A stretch of 61,971 nt of DNA, taken from a virus (lineage: Duplodnaviria > Caudoviricetes). Shown here one piece after another: positions 2,144 through 46,417 of this stretch. The first letter of the stretch is position 1. Each line of letters starts with the position of its first letter. Made by a program: the position numbers and the translations under genes. The stretch spans positions 1 to 61,971 of IMG/VR virus record IMGVR_UViG_3300000530_000004; one strand, 5' to 3'. Under the pieces are notes generated by a model that did no database searches, had not been told where the DNA came from, and was given only the letters and a program-made list of their open reading frames with translations.

Positions 2144-2562
2144 TCTGGAATAAAGAAACTGACCCTAGACTACCAAGCTGGCTTAATGCAGTTCTTAACA
2201 CGCCACCTTTTCTATTACCCCAAGAGTTTGTAATTCCTGTTATCTGTATTGTTCTGGGGTTCAAGCGTAATGGTAAATGGATGCTTGGTAAGATAGGTCG
2301 TGGCCCTAATAATCCTGCGTATATTGGACAGATGTTCTGGAATGGCATATTCGAGTGCAGATTCATGTTGCCATTTTATGTGAATTTTATGATTAGATGG
2401 TCAGCAACTGCTAGTCCAAGTTACTTTCAGTTTCAACTGGGCTGGAAACGCAATGGACGCTTTGCTATTGCATTTAGATTCTTAACCGATGCCTCTGCAA
2501 GGGCTGGTGTATTAAGCCCTAACACAGACCAAGCTGGTGGGTTTAATGAGGGTACGGCATAG
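2140..2562 (+). CDS. Hypothetical protein
   Basis: 140-aa ORF coupled to both neighbours by overlapping start/stop codons. Confidence 0.55.
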   Translation: MIWNKETDPRLPSWLNAVLNTPPFLLPQEFVIPVICIVLGFKRNGKWMLGKIGRGPNNPAYIGQMFWNGIFECRFMLPFYVNFMIRWSATASPSYFQFQLGWKRNGRFAIAFRFLTDASARAGVLSPNTDQAGGFNEGTA

Positions 2563-3128
2563 TGTTTGCAATAACTGCCCTTGCTCAGTCACCCTATGCT
2601 TCGCTTGGCGGTAATACTTACCTTGTGTCCATTTCAGATTCTGTAACGTCTACTGATACATTAAGTTCTTTTGCTAATTTTGTGGGTACAACAAGCGAGT
2701 CATCATCATTTACAGATTCAGATGTAGGGCAGTTTAATTTCTTTGAGACTGTTGCAGATACTCAATTCTATTCGGATCAGTATTTTGGATACTGGAATAC
2801 TAATGCTTCAACCTTAGAATCTCAAACTTTAACAGACAGCTTATCAGCTACACAGAATTTTCCAGTCGCAGTTACAGATACTGCAACTTATTTAGATTCA
2901 TTGCTTAATACGGGTTGGGCTAAGATTAATGATAATCAAACAGTTACTTGGACTCAAGTATATAATGTTCAAAACGAAACATGGCAGCAAGTAGTTGATG
3001 TACAGTCATCTGCAAATACGGGTGGCCTATTCTTTGGCGCGGCAGCTTTTGGACAAAGCCCATACTCGGGATCATCTACTACAGGTGTCACTGGGCCTAA
3101 TTGGACAGATATAAACGATATACAGTAA
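2562..3128 (+). CDS. Virion structural protein (Ser/Thr-rich)
   Basis: MFAITALAQSPYASLGG N-terminus and WTDIND C-terminus; tail-region context. Confidence 0.55.
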   Translation: MFAITALAQSPYASLGGNTYLVSISDSVTSTDTLSSFANFVGTTSESSSFTDSDVGQFNFFETVADTQFYSDQYFGYWNTNASTLESQTLTDSLSATQNFPVAVTDTATYLDSLLNTGWAKINDNQTVTWTQVYNVQNETWQQVVDVQSSANTGGLFFGAAAFGQSPYSGSSTTGVTGPNWTDINDIQ

Positions 3129-3152
3129 AATATTAAAAACTAAGGAGTTTTT

Positions 3153-4223
3153 ATGGCCTCAACATATTCACCATCGCTTAAGTTAGAGCTAATGGGTAAC
3201 GGCGACCAAGCTGGTACTTGGGGTACGACTACCAACAATAACCTTGGTACACTCCTTGAACAGGCTATTACTGGCGTACAGACTATTACGCTTTTAGATG
3301 CTGATCATACTCTAACAAATATTAACGGTGCATCAGATGAAGCTCGTAATGCGGTTTTAGTCGTTAATGGTACTACTTCTGCTATTCGTAATATTATTGC
3401 ACCAACATCCCAACAGAAAACATATATTGTAACTAATAGTACTGTCGGTGGGTTTGGTATAACAGTTAAAACAGCTTCTGGAGCTGGAGTAACAATTCCT
3501 TATGGTGCGACACAGATTGTTTATACCGACGGCACCAATTTTTATCTTGCAGCTTCCCAAACAGTAGTTGCCGCAGGTACCGGCATAAATGTGTCAACAG
3601 TGGGTACTACTGCTACAGTATCTAATACTGGGGTCGTAACTGTAACACCAAGCACAGGGATATCTGCCTCTACCACAGGCACTAACGTTACTATAGCTAA
3701 TACTGGAGTCACTTCAATAACTGGTACAGCGAATCAAGTTACAGCGTCTGCTAGTACTGGTGGAGTCACTTTAAGCCTGCCTTCTACTATTAACGTGAAT
3801 ATTTCTGGTAATGCTGCTACCGCTACAAATGCTAATTATGCAACAAATGCGGGTAATGCTAACTATGCAAATAGTGCTGGTTCAGCTAATAACGGTCTAG
3901 TAGCTGATTCTTTAGGCGGTAGTGGTTATGCACAGGTAGGCGGTTTAATTATTCAATGGCTTACTGTTACTGTTGGCACTACTGGGGGTAATGGTATGCA
4001 AGGTCCTTATGGGTTTAATTGGCCTAGAGGGTTTCCTAATACGTGTCTTTTTGCATCATGTAGTACACTTTTAGGGGGTAGTTTAAACTCTAGTGGTACT
4101 GGGCATATGGATATGTATTCTTATAATGGCTCAAATTTTGAAGTATTTTATAACGCTACAAATAATGGTAATGGCGGGACAGGGCAAAACTTACAGGCTA
4201 CAGTTTTTGCCGTAGGTTATTAA
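3153..4223 (+). CDS. Tail fibre protein
   Basis: MASTYSPSLKLELM start, Gly/Thr/Asn-rich shaft, C-terminal GGLIIQW...FPN...AVGY domain; RBS AAGGAG. Confidence 0.75.
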   Translation: MASTYSPSLKLELMGNGDQAGTWGTTTNNNLGTLLEQAITGVQTITLLDADHTLTNINGASDEARNAVLVVNGTTSAIRNIIAPTSQQKTYIVTNSTVGGFGITVKTASGAGVTIPYGATQIVYTDGTNFYLAASQTVVAAGTGINVSTVGTTATVSNTGVVTVTPSTGISASTTGTNVTIANTGVTSITGTANQVTASASTGGVTLSLPSTINVNISGNAATATNANYATNAGNANYANSAGSANNGLVADSLGGSGYAQVGGLIIQWLTVTVGTTGGNGMQGPYGFNWPRGFPNTCLFASCSTLLGGSLNSSGTGHMDMYSYNGSNFEVFYNATNNGNGGTGQNLQATVFAVGY

Positions 4224-4233
4224 GGAGATTAAT

Positions 4234-4722
4234 ATGAACTGGCTTGAACAAATCGCGCCTACTATAGCAACTGCCATTGGCGGTCCTTTAGGCGGTATTG
4301 CTTACGAAGTTATCTCTAAAGTAATGGGCGTTAGCCAAGATGATGCTAAACAAATGCTTGAGACCGGAAAGCTGTCCTCAGATCAGATAGCACAAGTTAA
4401 ACAAGCTGAGATCGAGCTTAAAAAGACCGAAGAAACGCTAGGATTAGACTTTGCATCCTTAGCTGAAAAAGATCGTGAATCAGCTAGGAATATGCAGTCT
4501 GTTACTAAATCATGGATACCAGGCTTTCTTGCTATATTCATTACCGCAGGGTTCTTTGGGATCTTACTTGCCCTTATGTATGGACAAGTACAGAAAAGTA
4601 ATGAGATTATGATTATGCTTGGATCTCTAGGAACTGCATGGGCTGGAGTGGTATCGTTTTACTTTGGCTCCAGTGCTAGTAGTCAGAATAAAGACGCTAC
4701 AATACATAACCTGAGTAAATAA
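4234..4722 (+). CDS. Holin-like membrane protein
   Basis: N-terminal APTIATAIGGPLGG, two C-terminal hydrophobic segments, FYFGSS motif; adjacent to the endolysin. Confidence 0.7.
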   Translation: MNWLEQIAPTIATAIGGPLGGIAYEVISKVMGVSQDDAKQMLETGKLSSDQIAQVKQAEIELKKTEETLGLDFASLAEKDRESARNMQSVTKSWIPGFLAIFITAGFFGILLALMYGQVQKSNEIMIMLGSLGTAWAGVVSFYFGSSASSQNKDATIHNLSK

Positions 4723-4723
4723 C

Positions 4724-5185
4724 ATGACACCTAATGAAAAAGCTTTTTTAGATATGCTAGCCATCAGTGAGGGAACTTATGGGAAGGGAGACAACGGATA
4801 CAACGTACTTGTGGGAGGTACTTTGTTTAGCGGCTATAGCGATCATCCCAATATATTGGTGGACTTGGGGCATGGACTTAAATCAACAGCTGCAGGCCGT
4901 TACCAACTCCTCTACCGCTGGTGGGAGCCATACAAAAAACTCTTGAACTTACCTGACTTTTCTCCCGAGTCTCAAGATAAAGTAGCACTTCAACAGATCA
5001 AAGAAAGAAATGCTATTGACGATATTAATAGTGGTAATATTAAGTCAGCGATTCAAAAATGTTCAAATATCTGGGCTTCACTGCCCGGTAATGATTATGG
5101 GCAGCATCAGAATAGTATGACTGCATTAATTGAAGCATATACTAATATGGGTGGGACCGATGCCTCTCCAGAAGCTACAGTTTAG
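4724..5185 (+). CDS. Endolysin, lambda R-type transglycosylase (GH104)
   Basis: AFLDMLAISEGT, STAAGRYQLL, DFSPESQD and WASLPG motifs of lambda-type lysozymes. Confidence 0.93.
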   Translation: MTPNEKAFLDMLAISEGTYGKGDNGYNVLVGGTLFSGYSDHPNILVDLGHGLKSTAAGRYQLLYRWWEPYKKLLNLPDFSPESQDKVALQQIKERNAIDDINSGNIKSAIQKCSNIWASLPGNDYGQHQNSMTALIEAYTNMGGTDASPEATV

Positions 5186-28929: not shown

Positions 28930-29135
28930 TCTTGTTCTCTCTTTATTTGACCAACCTTGAGCGCCGCACGATAACCACTTTCCCAACCTCTATCCCATAC
29001 TCCCGCAAGGATAAAAGCCCACCATGTAAACGGTCGTTCATGTCCCGCACGTAAAACATTTATTAGATTATTAGCGTAGGTTTTAGTCCACACCAACTTT
29101 GCTCTGTATTTTGTATCTTGCTTAGCAGTCCCCAT
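28926..29135 (-). CDS. Hypothetical protein
   Basis: Fills the gap between polymerase and exonuclease with overlapping ends. Confidence 0.4.
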   Translation of the reverse strand: MGTAKQDTKYRAKLVWTKTYANNLINVLRAGHERPFTWWAFILAGVWDRGWESGYRAALKVGQIKREQE

Positions 29136-31785
29136 AGCTTTTCCCATAACCTGATTCACAATTAACAGGTAGACCTGTCGCCCAGTCTGGTACCCAACGC
29201 ATACACTCCTCAACATATTTCTGTGCGTCAGCTACTTCGTCCTCACGAGCTAGACATGCAATAGCGTCGTGTACAGTTAATACCACGTCATACTTCTTAG
29301 CTATCTTAATCATCTGCTCACCGATAACGCATCGGGCAATCGCTTGGCAAACATTCTCAATAACTTTACCGCCGTAGATTTTATTCCAACCTGTGCGGGT
29401 CTTATATCTAAACTCAACGTAACCTGATTCGGCCTCATAACTATGCAGTGTGTCGTAACGTAGTAATAACCCACTTGGTAATTGTATGGCTCGTTCTTTA
29501 GGCACCAACTTCAATACACCCTCTCTACCTAATTCAGTAAAGTTCTCCTGTGCAAGTGCAAAGATCGCTGTATGTGCTTGTTTCCATAGTGCTGTTATCT
29601 GAGGATATGTTGCTCTGTATACGTTAATGATATGCCGCGATTCGTCCTCTGATATTTCTACACCAAACGTCTTAAGCTGTGCTCTGAACTTAACAGCCCC
29701 CATTCCGTATCCGCAGTTATGAACTATAATTGGCCCTACACTTGTCGCAACTGTGTATCTGTTCCTCGGCCCTGCGTAGGCGATGTCGTAAGTCATCAAT
29801 TTCTTTTTGCATATCGGATACTCGTCGTTTGTTTCTAGCATTTTCTGAGCGAGTCGCAAATCGTAAATTATTGGGTTCATACCCTTTGTTGTTGTCGATT
29901 CTATCAAGGTCTCGTTCTGGGTCATCCCATCCAGTGAGTGAAATAAGGTAGCGTAAGAAGTCTGCACGATTGGTACGCCAAGGCTCGTATACGGTAATAC
30001 CTCTACCCCCATATTGAGAATAGGTTTTACAAGTTTTTGTATGACAGCGTGATATGCAACTTGATATGCGGTTAAGCAACCGTTCACGATGTTCCCAATT
30101 TGGTACGATATCTGCATACCCCAAATACTTCTTACGAGTTTTGTTACTAGCGACCTTAGCACACGTATTGCATCTAGTAGTTTTTTTGGAGTTAAAGTTA
30201 TGCCTATCAACTCGTCCTTCCCACCCACACGTGCATCGTACGGTAGGATGGTACCCTCTGTTATACCTAACCCATCCTGTAATGGTAAGTTCACCTTGTT
30301 TAAAGCCGATTGGAAAAGGGAACGGTTTGTAATTACCTCTTTCCATTCCCGCCATCCATGTTCCGTCAGGATTTCGTGATCCGCTGTGGCGTCTAACCCC
30401 CAAGCTGTTATCACTTCTTTTTCGCCTTGTGGTATTACTCCTTGATGTGTTACCCATTCTTTACCGTCCCATAACATATCCGTAGCTTGTACTTCTACGA
30501 TACGCTTCCAACCTGAGTCAGTCAATACTTTTGTATCTTCTCCGAAACACCCAAGAATTGTTGTCTTACCAACGAACCGCTCGTCCTTAGTAATCTCTTC
30601 AACTGGTTTGTTATAAATAGCTGACGCCATAATCTTATAAACGTCTTCACCATTTTTAAATGCAGTAACTAAATCATCTTGTCCCGCTAACCATGCAAGC
30701 ACACGTGCTTCGATCTGGCTTGAGTCTGAGTCAATAATCACATAACCCTCTGGTGCGATAATCGCTTTCTTAAGTTTCCCACCATTAGCGCCACGTGATG
30801 GCAAGTTTTGCAAATTCAAATTGTCTGAACCACCCCACCGTCCAGTGTGCGCAGCGTAATATTTCAAGGGAACTGGCATCAATCCACGATTAGCAATCCC
30901 AATAAATCGTTCTGTTCTGGTTTCTTCCAAGGTCGACTTGGTTCCAAGTCTGGCACTGACTAACGCTTGTATACGCTCGTCTTCATGGTTCGCCAACGCT
31001 TTAAACTCTTCATCATTCTTAGCTAACGCAAAGGTATCTTTTCCTGTGGCAGGACTGGTCTTCATTGGAGGTTCAACGCCATAACTTCTTAACAGTTCAG
31101 CAAACTTGGGATTGCTTGCTAAGTCTTCTTTTGATACGCCCGCATCAACCAGCAGTTTTTCTTTACGTTGTCTAACCTCCATAAGATGTTGCTCTAAGAG
31201 AGTCAGATCAAGGTCTAGTTTCGGCTCAACAAACATACGCAAAGTTAAATCGATTAACTTCATTTCTTTTTTAGGAAAGCCACGTTTAACCATCAGGTTA
31301 AACAACTTATAGGTTAACTCCACATCATTAACGCAGTAGTCACCATAACGACTTAATGCTTCTTCGTTAAAATCAAGTCTGTGTTTACCAAGTGCGTTTA
31401 ATACCTCAGTACCTTTTTTACCAATGCCGTAACGCTCAGTTAACGCAGCGAGACTACCACCAACTTCAACACCATGTAACGCACGTGCCATACATAACGT
31501 ATCTGCATATGCTTTCGGTTTAATGCCAAGTATTTGAGTCAGGATAAACCCATCAAACATTGTGTTGTGGGCAACGAGCATTGAGTCACTCCAAGGATAT
31601 GTCTCAAGAAACTCCTTAAGTTCTTCGTGTGTACCACTAGCCCATGCGGTTTCTTCATCATTTAATTTAACTGCTAAACCAATGATCTCAAACTGATCGC
31701 CACGTATATACTCTTCGGTTGTCATTTTTGACAACGAGTATTGCTTATCGTAATAAGTCTCTATGTCTAATGTAATAAAATTCAT
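29122..31785 (-). CDS. polA: Family A DNA polymerase containing an intein
   Basis: 3'-5' exonuclease LDIET; HTGRW, NLQNLP; motif A DSSQIEAR; motif B RFVGKTTILG|CGYGMG split by the intein; motif C TVHD. Confidence 0.95.
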   Translation of the reverse strand: MNFITLDIETYYDKQYSLSKMTTEEYIRGDQFEIIGLAVKLNDEETAWASGTHEELKEFLETYPWSDSMLVAHNTMFDGFILTQILGIKPKAYADTLCMARALHGVEVGGSLAALTERYGIGKKGTEVLNALGKHRLDFNEEALSRYGDYCVNDVELTYKLFNLMVKRGFPKKEMKLIDLTLRMFVEPKLDLDLTLLEQHLMEVRQRKEKLLVDAGVSKEDLASNPKFAELLRSYGVEPPMKTSPATGKDTFALAKNDEEFKALANHEDERIQALVSARLGTKSTLEETRTERFIGIANRGLMPVPLKYYAAHTGRWGGSDNLNLQNLPSRGANGGKLKKAIIAPEGYVIIDSDSSQIEARVLAWLAGQDDLVTAFKNGEDVYKIMASAIYNKPVEEITKDERFVGKTTILGCFGEDTKVLTDSGWKRIVEVQATDMLWDGKEWVTHQGVIPQGEKEVITAWGLDATADHEILTEHGWREWKEVITNRSLFQSALNKVNLPLQDGLGITEGTILPYDARVGGKDELIGITLTPKKLLDAIRVLRSLVTKLVRSIWGMQISYQIGNIVNGCLTAYQVAYHAVIQKLVKPILNMGVEVLPYTSLGVPIVQTSYATLFHSLDGMTQNETLIESTTTKGMNPIIYDLRLAQKMLETNDEYPICKKKLMTYDIAYAGPRNRYTVATSVGPIIVHNCGYGMGAVKFRAQLKTFGVEISEDESRHIINVYRATYPQITALWKQAHTAIFALAQENFTELGREGVLKLVPKERAIQLPSGLLLRYDTLHSYEAESGYVEFRYKTRTGWNKIYGGKVIENVCQAIARCVIGEQMIKIAKKYDVVLTVHDAIACLAREDEVADAQKYVEECMRWVPDWATGLPVNCESGYGKSYGDC
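29716..30549 (-). mobile_element. Intein (278 aa) in polymerase motif B
   Basis: Begins CFGEDTKVLTDSGW; block B ATADHEILT; ends TYDI...IIVHN followed by Cys+1; removal restores KTTILG-CGYG. Confidence 0.93.
29717..30457 (-). CDS. HNH-type (His-Me finger) endonuclease overprinted in the -1 frame inside the polymerase intein
   Basis: RCTCG..RCNTC, YGGRGITVYEPW and LDRIDNNKGYEPNNLRFATRSENARN motifs; true start may be 30355 or 30346. Confidence 0.85.
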   Translation of the reverse strand: MGNTSRSNTTRRKRSDNSLGVRRHSGSRNPDGTWMAGMERGNYKPFPFPIGFKQGELTITGWVRYNRGYHPTVRCTCGWEGRVDRHNFNSKKTTRCNTCAKVASNKTRKKYLGYADIVPNWEHRERLLNRISSCISRCHTKTCKTYSQYGGRGITVYEPWRTNRADFLRYLISLTGWDDPERDLDRIDNNKGYEPNNLRFATRSENARNKRRVSDMQKEIDDLRHRLRRAEEQIHSCDKCRANYSS

Positions 31786-43422: not shown

Positions 43423-43992
43423 ATGGACACAATGCATATAATCGAACCGGACTTTTCAATACCCATACCTGACAAACCTACACCGTTGACTGATTTCACG
43501 GAAAAGGTCGAAGCCGCTTGCCGTACCATTGAAGAGTACGACATTGAAGCGGTTATTACTGAAGAGACTGCAGAAGAAGCTGAAGAAGCTATTTATCAAA
43601 TGGCTTCAAGTCCTGATCCTGATAAGATAAATAAACAACTCGCTAAGCAAAACCATCTACCTGCATATTACGTACAAGCCCGTGGCATCCTTGATGCATA
43701 CTCACACAAGGTCGTAGACCATGCGATGCAGCTACGTCTATTAGTTACTAATAAGTTAATTATTGAGACTGAGAATGAAGACGCGAAGATTCGTCTGCGT
43801 GCATTAGAACTGCTTGGTAAGATTACTGACGTTGGCTTATTTACTGAGAAGTCGGAAGTAACTATTAATCATAGATCAACCGTTGAGTTAGTTGGATCCT
43901 TAAGAGCTAAGATTCAGAAGCTTATGTATCCTGACAATGTGCAGGAAGGTGAAGTAGTCGAGCAAAAGGACGACAATGCAGACGGCGCTTGA
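43423..43992 (+). CDS. Putative terminase small subunit
   Basis: Directly upstream of TerL; RLRALELLGKITDVGLFTEK oligomerisation-like motif. Confidence 0.65.
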   Translation: MDTMHIIEPDFSIPIPDKPTPLTDFTEKVEAACRTIEEYDIEAVITEETAEEAEEAIYQMASSPDPDKINKQLAKQNHLPAYYVQARGILDAYSHKVVDHAMQLRLLVTNKLIIETENEDAKIRLRALELLGKITDVGLFTEKSEVTINHRSTVELVGSLRAKIQKLMYPDNVQEGEVVEQKDDNADGA

Positions 43993-46417
43993 TGAGTTAA
44001 CAGATAAAGAACTTGAGTTTCTTGCTAATAACTTAGACAAGTTTAGTGAAGTTGACGCTGAAGAGTTAGAAGTAATCTTAGATGAAATAGAAAAACGTCA
44101 GAGCGCTGAGCGTTGCCGCAACGACTTAATTGAGTTTTGTAAGCGTATTCAGCCGGATTATAAGGTGGGTAAACACCATAGACGCCTTGCAGATTTATTA
44201 ATGGGTCTCGCTGCTGGTACTGAGACACGTGTTTGCGTGAACATGCCCCCTCGTCATGGTAAATCTCAGCTTGTTTCTATCTATTTCCCTGCATGGTTTC
44301 TAGGTAAGTACCCTGATAAAAAGGTGCTGATGGTGTCACATACAACCGACCTTGCGGTGGACTTTGGTCGGAAAGTGAGGAATTTAATTGATACTCCAGT
44401 ATATAAAGAGATATTTCCTACAGTTGCCCTTGCTCTGGATAATAAATCTGCTGGTCGTTGGAATACTAACGTTGGTGGGGAGTATTTTGCTTGTGGTGTT
44501 GGGTCTGCCTTGGCTGGTCGTGGAGCGGACTTATTATTGGTGGATGACCCGCACAACGAACAAGACATAATTAACGGTAACTTTGATGTATTCGACAAGG
44601 CTTACGAGTGGTTTACTTATGGTGCTCGTACACGTCTTATGCCTAATGGCCGTGTGGCTATCGTGCAGTGTATGGTCGGAGATACTCAGGTTTTAATGGG
44701 AGATGGTACAGAAAAAGACCTTAAAGATATTAAAGTTGGGGACATAGTAGCTACTTATGATGCTGGGAAATTAAGTACATCTAGAGTACTAAATCATCAG
44801 TCAAACGGTATTGATCGCATATTTACAATCAAGACAACCTCACGTATACTACAAGCTAATGAAAGACATCCGTTTCTTGTACAAACTAGTGAGGGGCAAA
44901 AATGGGTACGGCTGAAAAACTTGAAACAGGGGGATACACTTGTATCGTTGAAGGGTGTGGGAGACCAAGTAGAGCAACAACAAAACCTAGTAAATGCCGA
45001 GCCTGCCAATCTAAAGACAGTTACCATAAAAAACACCCAGAGGCTCCACGCAGAGAACTTGGGCATTGGGGGAAATATAAAGGTAAAACCTGTATTGCAG
45101 ATGGTTGTGAACAACCAGCAAAGATTAAAGGATTGTGTAACTCGCACTATAACAAAACTAATTGGGCCTCTGGACATTGGCGCAGAAGCGCGGACAAAAA
45201 TAGAACTGCGCACCTTAAGCACCGATACGGCATCACGATGGAAGAGCATGATACGCTTCTTGCAAAACAAGGTGGTGTCTGTGCTATCTGTAAGCAGCCG
45301 CCAACTAAAGAAAATACCCGCGCTCATTGGAATGGAAAATTATGTGTTGACCACTGTCACGACACCGGAAAAGTCCGGGGGCTTTTATGTAATGACTGCA
45401 ACCTCGCGGTTGGATACGCAAAAACTAGAAATACCGCCCTTGCAGTTGCAGAGTATATCGGACTTCACGATAGACACGATTGAGTCTATAGAATACGCAG
45501 GGGAAGCAGAAGTATTTGATATTCAGGTCGAACACACTGAAAACTTCATTGCTAATGGAGTAGTTTCTCATAATACTAGATGGCACCAAGACGATTTAAC
45601 AGGTCGTGTCGTGCGAGACATGACTCAGAATGAAGAAGCTGATCAGTATGAGATTGTTGAGTTCCCTGCAATATTTAATGAGAACAGTGCGAATGAAAAA
45701 GCACTCTGGCCTGAACAATATTCCTTACAAGCACTGCGACAGACCAAGGCTTCTATGCCTGTGTTTCAGTGGAACGCACAGTACCAACAAAATCCCACAG
45801 CAGAAGAAGCATCTGTTATAAAGAGAGAGTGGTGGCAGATATGGAAAGGTGAGAATCCACCTCCATGTGAGTATTTAATAATGACACTTGATGCCGCTGC
45901 AGAAACTCATAACCGTGCCGACTACACTGCACTAACAACGTGGGGGGTGTTTTTAAATGAAGAAACCGACGCCTATAACGTTATTCTCCTCAACAGTATT
46001 AAGCGACGAGTGGAGTTCACTGAGCTTAAAGAGCTTGCGATTAACGAGTACACCGAGTGGCAACCTGACGCTTTCATTGTCGAGAAAAAGTCTTCCGGTA
46101 CGCCTCTCTATCAAGAACTACGACGAACTGGGATGCCCGTACTGGAGTATACTCCCCACAGAGGATCAGGGGATAAATTAGCCCGTTTAAATAGTGTGGC
46201 AGATATTGTGAAGTCAGGATTAGTGTGGGTTCCTGAGACTCGTTGGGCTGAGGAGTTAGTTGAGGAAGTAGCGGGGTTTCCCTTTATGTCGCACGATGAC
46301 TTAGTAGATACGACTTCCATGGCTCTCATGCGATTTAGACAAGGTGGGTTTATTAGGCTACCATCTGATGAACCTGATGAAGTTCAGTACTTTAAACGTA
46401 AGCGGTCTTATTATTAA
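43976..46417 (+). CDS. terL: Terminase large subunit containing an intein
   Basis: MPPRHGKS Walker A, LLVDDP Walker B, IVQ|TRWH motif split by the intein; nuclease LDAA...HDDLVD. Confidence 0.95.
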   Translation: MQTALDELTDKELEFLANNLDKFSEVDAEELEVILDEIEKRQSAERCRNDLIEFCKRIQPDYKVGKHHRRLADLLMGLAAGTETRVCVNMPPRHGKSQLVSIYFPAWFLGKYPDKKVLMVSHTTDLAVDFGRKVRNLIDTPVYKEIFPTVALALDNKSAGRWNTNVGGEYFACGVGSALAGRGADLLLVDDPHNEQDIINGNFDVFDKAYEWFTYGARTRLMPNGRVAIVQCMVGDTQVLMGDGTEKDLKDIKVGDIVATYDAGKLSTSRVLNHQSNGIDRIFTIKTTSRILQANERHPFLVQTSEGQKWVRLKNLKQGDTLVSLKGVGDQVEQQQNLVNAEPANLKTVTIKNTQRLHAENLGIGGNIKVKPVLQMVVNNQQRLKDCVTRTITKLIGPLDIGAEARTKIELRTLSTDTASRWKSMIRFLQNKVVSVLSVSSRQLKKIPALIGMENYVLTTVTTPEKSGGFYVMTATSRLDTQKLEIPPLQLQSISDFTIDTIESIEYAGEAEVFDIQVEHTENFIANGVVSHNTRWHQDDLTGRVVRDMTQNEEADQYEIVEFPAIFNENSANEKALWPEQYSLQALRQTKASMPVFQWNAQYQQNPTAEEASVIKREWWQIWKGENPPPCEYLIMTLDAAAETHNRADYTALTTWGVFLNEETDAYNVILLNSIKRRVEFTELKELAINEYTEWQPDAFIVEKKSSGTPLYQELRRTGMPVLEYTPHRGSGDKLARLNSVADIVKSGLVWVPETRWAEELVEEVAGFPFMSHDDLVDTTSMALMRFRQGGFIRLPSDEPDEVQYFKRKRSYY
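44669..45574 (+). mobile_element. Intein (302 aa) in TerL
   Basis: Begins CMVGDTQVLMGDG..IKVGD; block B ANERHPFLV; ends VFDIQVEHTENFIANGVVSHN followed by Thr+1. Confidence 0.95.
44902..45483 (+). CDS. Endonuclease VII-type (His-Me finger) nuclease overprinted in the -1 frame inside the TerL intein
   Basis: SD GAGGGG at 44891-44896; CIVEGC and CIADGC...GLCNSHY zinc motifs; RYGIT..QGGVCAIC..LCVDHCHDTGKVRGLLCNDCNLAVG. Confidence 0.92.
   Translation: MGTAEKLETGGYTCIVEGCGRPSRATTKPSKCRACQSKDSYHKKHPEAPRRELGHWGKYKGKTCIADGCEQPAKIKGLCNSHYNKTNWASGHWRRSADKNRTAHLKHRYGITMEEHDTLLAKQGGVCAICKQPPTKENTRAHWNGKLCVDHCHDTGKVRGLLCNDCNLAVGYAKTRNTALAVAEYIGLHDRHD

Follow-up and report, generated by a model that had tools for sequence, protein, structure and literature searches.

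The layout in which a nuclease gene lies inside an intein, out of frame with the host gene, has already been published (2015, 2025, 2026). An out-of-frame HNH gene was noted in 2015 in the terL intein of Brucella phages (PMC4422536), inteins in the terminase large subunit (TerL) of actinophages were described whose nuclease, 'in reading frame 3', is endonuclease VII-like (Gosselin, Arsenault, Gogarten, bioRxiv 10.1101/2025.01.02.630785), and a cyanobacterial dnaX intein was reported to contain an out-of-frame LAGLIDADG gene, the '+2 ORF', for which Shine-Dalgarno (SD) motifs were noted (bioRxiv 10.64898/2026.09.14.751524, 2026). The ShiLan 'hidden HNH' in phage methylases occupies the third frame, ends on TAAC and, according to its authors, has no detectable ribosome-binding site (RBS) (PMC11855218, 2025). 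Here we describe a further case in the uncultured phage of IMG/VR virus record IMGVR_UViG_3300000530_000004, which is rated complete (99%) and was analysed over its full 61,971 bp (the window). Its genes for TerL and for a family A DNA polymerase (Pol) are both interrupted by inteins, and both inteins correspond to type D of Gosselin 2025, with the nuclease open reading frame (ORF) between the splicing halves, on the same strand, in another frame and with the host frame open. The spot under study in the TerL intein is, we consider it likely, the translation-initiation region of a homing endonuclease gene in the -1 frame, and the Pol intein appears to follow the same design.

The TerL precursor (813 residues, 43976..46417, plus strand; Terminase_6N/6C) is Pelagibacter-phage-like and keeps its frame open across an intein of 302 residues (amino acids 232-533, 44669..45574, plus strand), which runs from Cys1 to SHN/T (slashes mark protein junctions or, in DNA, codon boundaries). 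The intein matches PF14890 (Intein_splicing) with 62.3 bits, where the cut-off is 35.8, and with 61.1 bits in the genome search. It carries the hallmarks of its class in C232, block B ANERH (with Asn at the usual Thr position), a terminal SHN and Thr as the +1 nucleophile, and without it the flanks rejoin the host motif AIVQ/TRWHQDDL. Inside it, a second gene on the plus strand (44902..45483) encodes 193 residues of an endonuclease VII-type homing endonuclease, as judged from a match of 68.5 bits to PF02945 (Recombination endonuclease VII; cut-off 23.6, profile positions 3-79 of 82) and from membership of the PHROG endonuclease VII family phrog_2914 (E-value 1.4e-26).

In the host frame the stretch in question reads AGT GAG GGG CAA AAA TGG GTA (S E G Q K W V). 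The last base of AAA and the first two of TGG, the codon (44903-44905) for the Trp of EGQKW that follows block B, together form the nested ATG (44902-44904), and an SD-like GAGGGG (44891..44896, plus strand) is formed 5 nucleotides upstream by the Glu-Gly codons GAG GGG; the original prediction had described both signals in this way, and the sequence confirmed it. The ATG is offset by 2 modulo 3 from the host frame, that is -1, alias +2 or 'frame 3', and an in-frame TGA three codons upstream (44890-44892) makes it the earliest possible start of the nested gene. It stands about 13 codons ahead of the first conserved nuclease motif, where the DNA still encodes a splicing strand, W.RL..L..GD. Given its position in DNA that codes for the splicing domain, this start was probably recruited from the intein, not imported with the nuclease gene, and later fixed by selection.

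Layout and start recur among relatives. A scan of IMG/VR with the nested TerL protein returned 305 relatives, so that this family has at least 305 members there, and in all of the best 80, which were analysed, the nuclease is at -1 inside a long open host frame. The corresponding scan with the nested Pol protein gave 75 loci, 53 of them free-standing genes and 22 full-length relatives; every one of the latter has the nested gene at -1 and the host frame open over it. Stops are abundant in the other frames of the 53 free-standing genes, and for 45 distinct free-standing HNH relatives the stop densities of the two other frames are 5.3 and 10.3 per 100 codons, which argues that a host frame open over 190-250 codons is kept so by selection. 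Over the central overlap, mean identity in the nested frame versus the host frame is 61% versus 33% for the TerL type (n=79) and 59% versus 28% for the Pol type (n=21).

The start of the nested TerL gene could be compared at the 74 of 80 loci whose alignment reached residue 1 (L015, L018, L028, L068, L075 and L076 were dropped). It falls on a host Trp codon in all 74, as ATG in 73 and as GTG in one, and the codon before that Trp is of eight types (GAA, AAA, CAA, AGA, ACA, GTA, CGA, ACG). A comparison with canonical inteins had been suggested as a check for enrichment of A before TGG; taking instead the other Trp codons of the same genes as background, here and for the SD comparison, we found that the base before the start Trp is A in 71 of 72 distinct host ORFs versus 331 of 1353 other Trp codons (24.5%). 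An SD-like word (GGAG, GAGG, AGGA, GGGG, GGGA or AAGG at positions -15 to -5) precedes 70 of these 72 starts and 195 of the 1353 other Trp codons (14.4%). For the Pol type, A precedes the start Trp in 15/16 cases versus 87/300 (29%), and an SD-like word in 16/16 versus 29/300 (9.7%). The joint presence of A and an SD-like word at the TerL start Trp is far beyond chance and indicates that this start is under selection; related as the sequences are, the A is kept while the codon that ends in it changes among the eight types. The codons that make up the start and the SD (Trp and Gly, together with Glu or Val) are kept from marine and freshwater metagenomic contigs to actinophages: Gordonia phage Angelicage, with its TerL intein at the same site, has ACA/TGG on the same post-block-B Trp, and Mycobacterium phage Athena has CGG/TGG, giving a GTG start on that Trp of its TerL intein. 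That a Trp commonly follows block B, as the original prediction held, agrees with its alignment to a Trp of the solved HINT domain 8w20 (E-value 5e-4) and to the GW of the Mtu RecA intein (E-value about 0.2); on these alignments it is an ordinary, general HINT residue.

Two further observations concern the TerL type. Sigma-70-like hexamers occur 50-90 nucleotides upstream of the nested start in the window (44822-44850) and in relatives (L001-L080). The candidate in the window, TTTACA-17-TATACT (44822..44850, plus strand, 10/12), ends 52 nucleotides upstream of the nested ATG; four such sites were found versus 2.7 +/- 1.6 in shuffles, and a score of at least 9 of 12 was reached in 33% of 73 TerL-type relatives versus 4.9% of 810 control windows from the same genes. 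This putative site may be a promoter that lies within the gene and is spelled by its codons, or else a by-product of conserved residues (IYKIQT). Furthermore, in one relative (L049, 1218-1499) the first ~25 intein residues (CMTGDT...) are replaced by MTRWGKRDLTGQ..., resembling the post-intein extein motif, and this may be a rearranged or misassembled copy.

The second intein of the phage interrupts Pol motif B (ILG/CGYG). The Pol precursor (887 residues, 29122..31785, minus strand) is open across it, and the intein itself (CFGED ... VHN/C) comprises 278 residues (amino acids 413-690, 29716..30549, minus strand). Pointing to an intein are C413, block B TADH, VHN/C and the interrupted motif; its block B aligns weakly with that of the Mtu RecA intein (E-value about 0.2), no Pfam intein family matched it at E <= 0.01, and its homologues carry the annotation 'intein-containing DNA polymerase precursor'. 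The nested HNH-like endonuclease gene (246 residues, 29717..30457, minus strand) is again in the -1 frame, and its product matches phrog_374, an HNH family (E-value 3.7e-27). All three candidate ATGs, at 30457 (GAA/TGG), 30355 (GGA/TGG) and 30346 (GAA/TGG), are in this frame and combine an A-ending codon with TGG, just as had been described; the latter two lie in HGWREW after block B, and the first in DGKEW before it. Among Pol-type relatives the conserved start is the first ATG, the equivalent of 30457, on the Trp of DGxEW upstream of block B (AAA/TGG in Salmonella phage SETP3), and the HGWREW positions are ATG or GTG in most relatives, not in every one. The expectation that nested genes start at the Trp after block B holds for the TerL type, at 74 of 74 loci, and is not supported for the Pol type. 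In one Pol-type relative (L094, 2813-3457) a stop interrupts the nested frame, leaving 160 codons open, within an intact host frame of 875 codons, which looks like a nuclease decaying inside a still intact intein.

Taken together, the data suggest the following scheme. The host frame would stay open, allowing the full precursor to be translated and the intein to excise itself, and ribosomes would start the nuclease internally at an ATG composed of the preceding codon's last base and the TG of a conserved intein Trp, guided by an SD that the neighbouring Gly and Glu codons provide. The nuclease, given its family membership, would presumably cut intein-less alleles in co-infecting phages and in this way spread the intein.

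Several points weigh against this scheme or narrow it. Initiation at the nested ATGs, nuclease activity and homing are all steps that we infer from sequence, and the start and layout counts were drawn from related sequences, not from independent events. Frames were checked on sequence in four lineages, two at -1 and two at +1, so that there may be a real -1 bias. The true Pol start is uncertain, because conservation over residues 1-45, counted from the first ATG, is poor and disorder is predicted there, and Met35 or Met38 (30355, 30346) could serve instead. The nested Pol protein had no Pfam match, with just coiled-coil noise at E <= 10, and a PDB sequence search gave no match at E <= 1. HNH families have a His where this protein reads DRID, in the motif DRIDNNKGY. 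Its structure model has a predicted local distance difference test score (pLDDT) of 74.9; Foldseek matched it to no PDB structure at E <= 0.001, and the fold match of VIA-align was weak, placing PacI on residues 112-211 with Z 3.7 and a root-mean-square deviation of 3.3 over 80 aligned residues, all matches in the wide VIA-align search having Z values of 3.7-5.5. The same model also shows a small, Tudor/SH3-like beta-barrel at residues 46-94 (Z 4-5.5), preceding the nuclease-like part.

Nested nucleases were found in both the -1 and the +1 frame, an outcome of the kind that the original prediction had itself named as speaking against it, and one that refutes it in part. In Brucella phage Tb terL (2347..4893) an HNH gene (3170..3856) lies at offset 1 over a stop-free host frame, and APSE-1 P45/P46 likewise has its nested gene at offset 1 and a stop-free host frame. 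Among IMG/VR loci, 11/11 of the Tb type and 23/30 of the P46 type are nested at +1, the other seven P46-type loci being cut or free-standing. APSE-type starts lie within three codons of the post-block-B Trp and take two forms: an ATG from GAT/G of T(N/D)DGW, in which case GAGG is supplied by the His-Glu-Val codons of block B, or an ATG or GTG two to three codons past the Trp, with GAGGG or AAGGG from (E/K)-G-W codons. What recurs is the start position near block B, not the frame, and this suggests that G- or purine-rich codons near block B readily become an RBS in either frame. A broader reading, which we offer tentatively as a possibility, is that the few conserved codons around block B (Glu/Gly/Trp or Asp-Gly) form a recurrent, frame-independent landing pad that doubles as RBS and start of the nuclease and was reached separately by three of the four lineages, namely the TerL type at -1 (ATG on the Trp), the APSE-type Pol at +1 and the window-type Pol at -1 (HGW bearing the candidate starts). 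If so, nuclease expression would be hard-wired to an intact splicing domain, and intein and nuclease would be hard to separate. In relatives of the Tb terL intein (L165-L174) the +1 nested frame begins 60-80 codons upstream of its opening in Tb and crosses block B, with both frames looking conserved there (KLSP.VR.LGYT.SPL and YRITT..GR.VEATG.H).

For the -1 position of both nested genes of the phage, the original prediction offered the codons themselves as a possible explanation: thanks to the post-block-B Gly and Trp codons and the terminal CAT AAY, mini-inteins would already possess an SD, an ATG and a stop in the -1 frame, in which cargo would then land. The conserved TerL-type start and SD do sit on exactly such codons, the Trp is ancestral to HINT domains, and the ShiLan gene in the 'third frame' ending on TAAC and the dnaX '+2 ORF' with its SD motifs, as described in the papers cited above, fit the same picture. 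However, the link to Trp is forced by the code, since a -1-frame ATG can overlie TGG, TGT or TGC alone; elsewhere in the host genes, 73-83% of -1-frame ATGs lie on TGG, and ATGs on Trp codons are thus what would be expected. Ready-made ATGs are, moreover, about three times commoner at +1 (2.0-2.7 versus 0.6-0.8 per 100 codons in four host-gene sets; 24 versus 6 in the window TerL gene and 28 versus 11 in the window Pol gene), so that supply would favour +1, and ATG supply was ruled out as the cause of the -1 frame. The proposed stop applies to the nested Pol gene, whose TAA lies within CAT AAC, the intein's terminal His-Asn codons; it does not apply to the nested TerL gene, which ends at the TGA within ATT GAG, well short of the intein end, nor does it generalize, being found in 4/21 distinct Pol-type and 0/79 TerL-type loci. 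The Pol-type start lies upstream of block B, +1 lineages exist, one of which (APSE-1) is homologous to the window Pol pair, and 10/21 +1 inteins have an unused -1 ATG (GGA/TGG) at the very same Trp. The wobble base of the Gly codon in the post-block-B GW is A or G in 17/17 Gly codons of Pol inteins with a -1 gene versus 13/20 of those with a +1 gene, a contrast that is suggestive only, the sequences being related. We therefore regard this explanation as improbable: the shared -1 frame is not a property of the Trp codons, Trp being the sole common residue that seats a -1 ATG.

A second explanation turns on stops. With the nuclease at -1, the frame read by the host would hold about half as many stops as in the alternative, and fewer changes would be needed to keep it open. 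The asymmetry itself is clear, with 523 versus 1015 stops in 9856 codons of the 45 free-standing HNH relatives (fewer in 43/45, Wilcoxon p 7e-9) and, for 54 distinct endonuclease VII genes that are free-standing, 6.5 versus 14.8 stops per 100 codons (fewer in 54/54), although the latter genes are closely related to one another. Even so, the better frame would still hold about 10 stops per 200-codon gene, so that neither frame is open on arrival, and +1 lineages are widespread. Each lineage keeps to a single frame, and that frame differs between lineages, which leaves few independent events; when ShiLan and dnaX are added with their frames as their papers state them, unchecked on sequence, the tally becomes 4 at -1 versus 2 at +1, a direction that agrees with the proposal and yet is no different from 1:1, four to six events being too few. 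As a cause of the frame, stop load is in our judgement rather unlikely. The -1 position of both nested genes is best read as a historical accident with even odds, onto which the twofold lower off-frame stop load may have put a slight bias. A different kind of objection is that the nuclease might not be initiated internally at all but reached by programmed -1 ribosomal frameshifting or transcriptional slippage at the A-rich run GGGGCAAAAATGG. The shift required is indeed -1, and five A residues stand at the spot; however, the host codons (CAA AAA TGG) do not form an X XXY YYZ heptamer, the nested frame is closed by a stop three codons ahead of the ATG, and the run is missing from most relatives (e.g. 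GGAGTACTTGA/ATGGAC) while ATG and SD persist. This last point led us to reject the possibility, which we consider extremely unlikely, and internal initiation at the Trp-borne ATG remains the preferred reading.

We found no paper on nested starts built from intein Trp or Gly codons in a search of the literature, to which supplements may add; the main text of bioRxiv 10.1101/2025.01.02.630785 contains no 'start codon', 'ribosom' or 'tryptophan', and here too the supplements may bear on the question. This detail is new, if modest. From it one can see how a selfish gene overprinted on another would be translated, with start signals carved from conserved codons of its carrier and held there by selection, and it accounts for a near-invariant 'silent' third base in the intein, the A before the start Trp, through selection on the nested start. 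It also gives annotators a simple rule for hidden nested genes and experimenters a defined site to mutate, and it corrects an attractive generalisation, in that the frame is lineage-specific and the Trp link a consequence of the genetic code.

Comparison with known systems places the two window inteins in different company. Homologues of the nested Pol gene (44-48% identity), at -1 in a Pol intein, occur in Salmonella Jerseyviruses (SETP3, SE2 and others), EBPR siphovirus 2 and Pseudomonas phage MR14; in these Pol inteins the first ATG lies on the same pre-block-B Trp as in the window, and the nested gene is mostly unannotated in these records. In Salmonella phage SS3e (L162, NC_006940.2 23850-29341, locus 2213-3022) the HNH-like gene continues the frame of the N-terminal Pol intein half, the polymerase being annotated as three ORFs, orf41, orf42 ('HNH endonuclease') and orf43; the record is old, and this reflects either errors in its sequencing or a genuine change of frame, a proposed route to in-frame nucleases. 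The APSE-1 P45 intein and P46 resemble the window Pol pair in having homologous intein blocks and a homologous HNH-like nuclease (31% identity, E-value 2e-16). They differ in the +1 frame of the nuclease and in the insertion site, YGGK/EN.CQA, which is uninterrupted in the window Pol, and the APSE-1 relatives also differ in a start from GAT/G or xGT/G whose SD is provided by Glu-Val or Glu-Gly codons beside the same post-block-B Trp.

Escherichia phage DrSchubert (L160, 683-3113) has an endonuclease VII-like homing endonuclease in a terminase annotated as a two-piece join. Both other frames of this 'terminase | homing endonuclease' locus are filled with stops, and it was left out of the tally as intron-type; it is an intron-type carrier of the same nuclease family that rides inteins in the window. 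The terL intein of Brucella phages Tb and Pr shares with the window TerL intein its host gene, a same-strand overlapping nuclease gene and an open host frame, but differs in the +1 frame, the Walker B insertion site, the zinc-ribbon HNH nuclease and, among its relatives, a nested frame that opens before block B. ShiLan and the dnaX intein likewise combine an overprinted homing nuclease with an open host frame, ShiLan differing in having no splicing domain and the dnaX intein in being bacterial and carrying a LAGLIDADG nuclease. The actinophage TerL inteins are found in the same host gene and at the same insertion site (.../CM.GDT ... SHN/TRWH) as the window TerL intein, although the latter comes from an uncultured phage of 62 kb whose TerL is Pelagibacter-phage-like, and the nuclease of Angelicage belongs to the same family as the nested TerL protein of the window, with 52% identity, the same -1 frame and the same start Trp.

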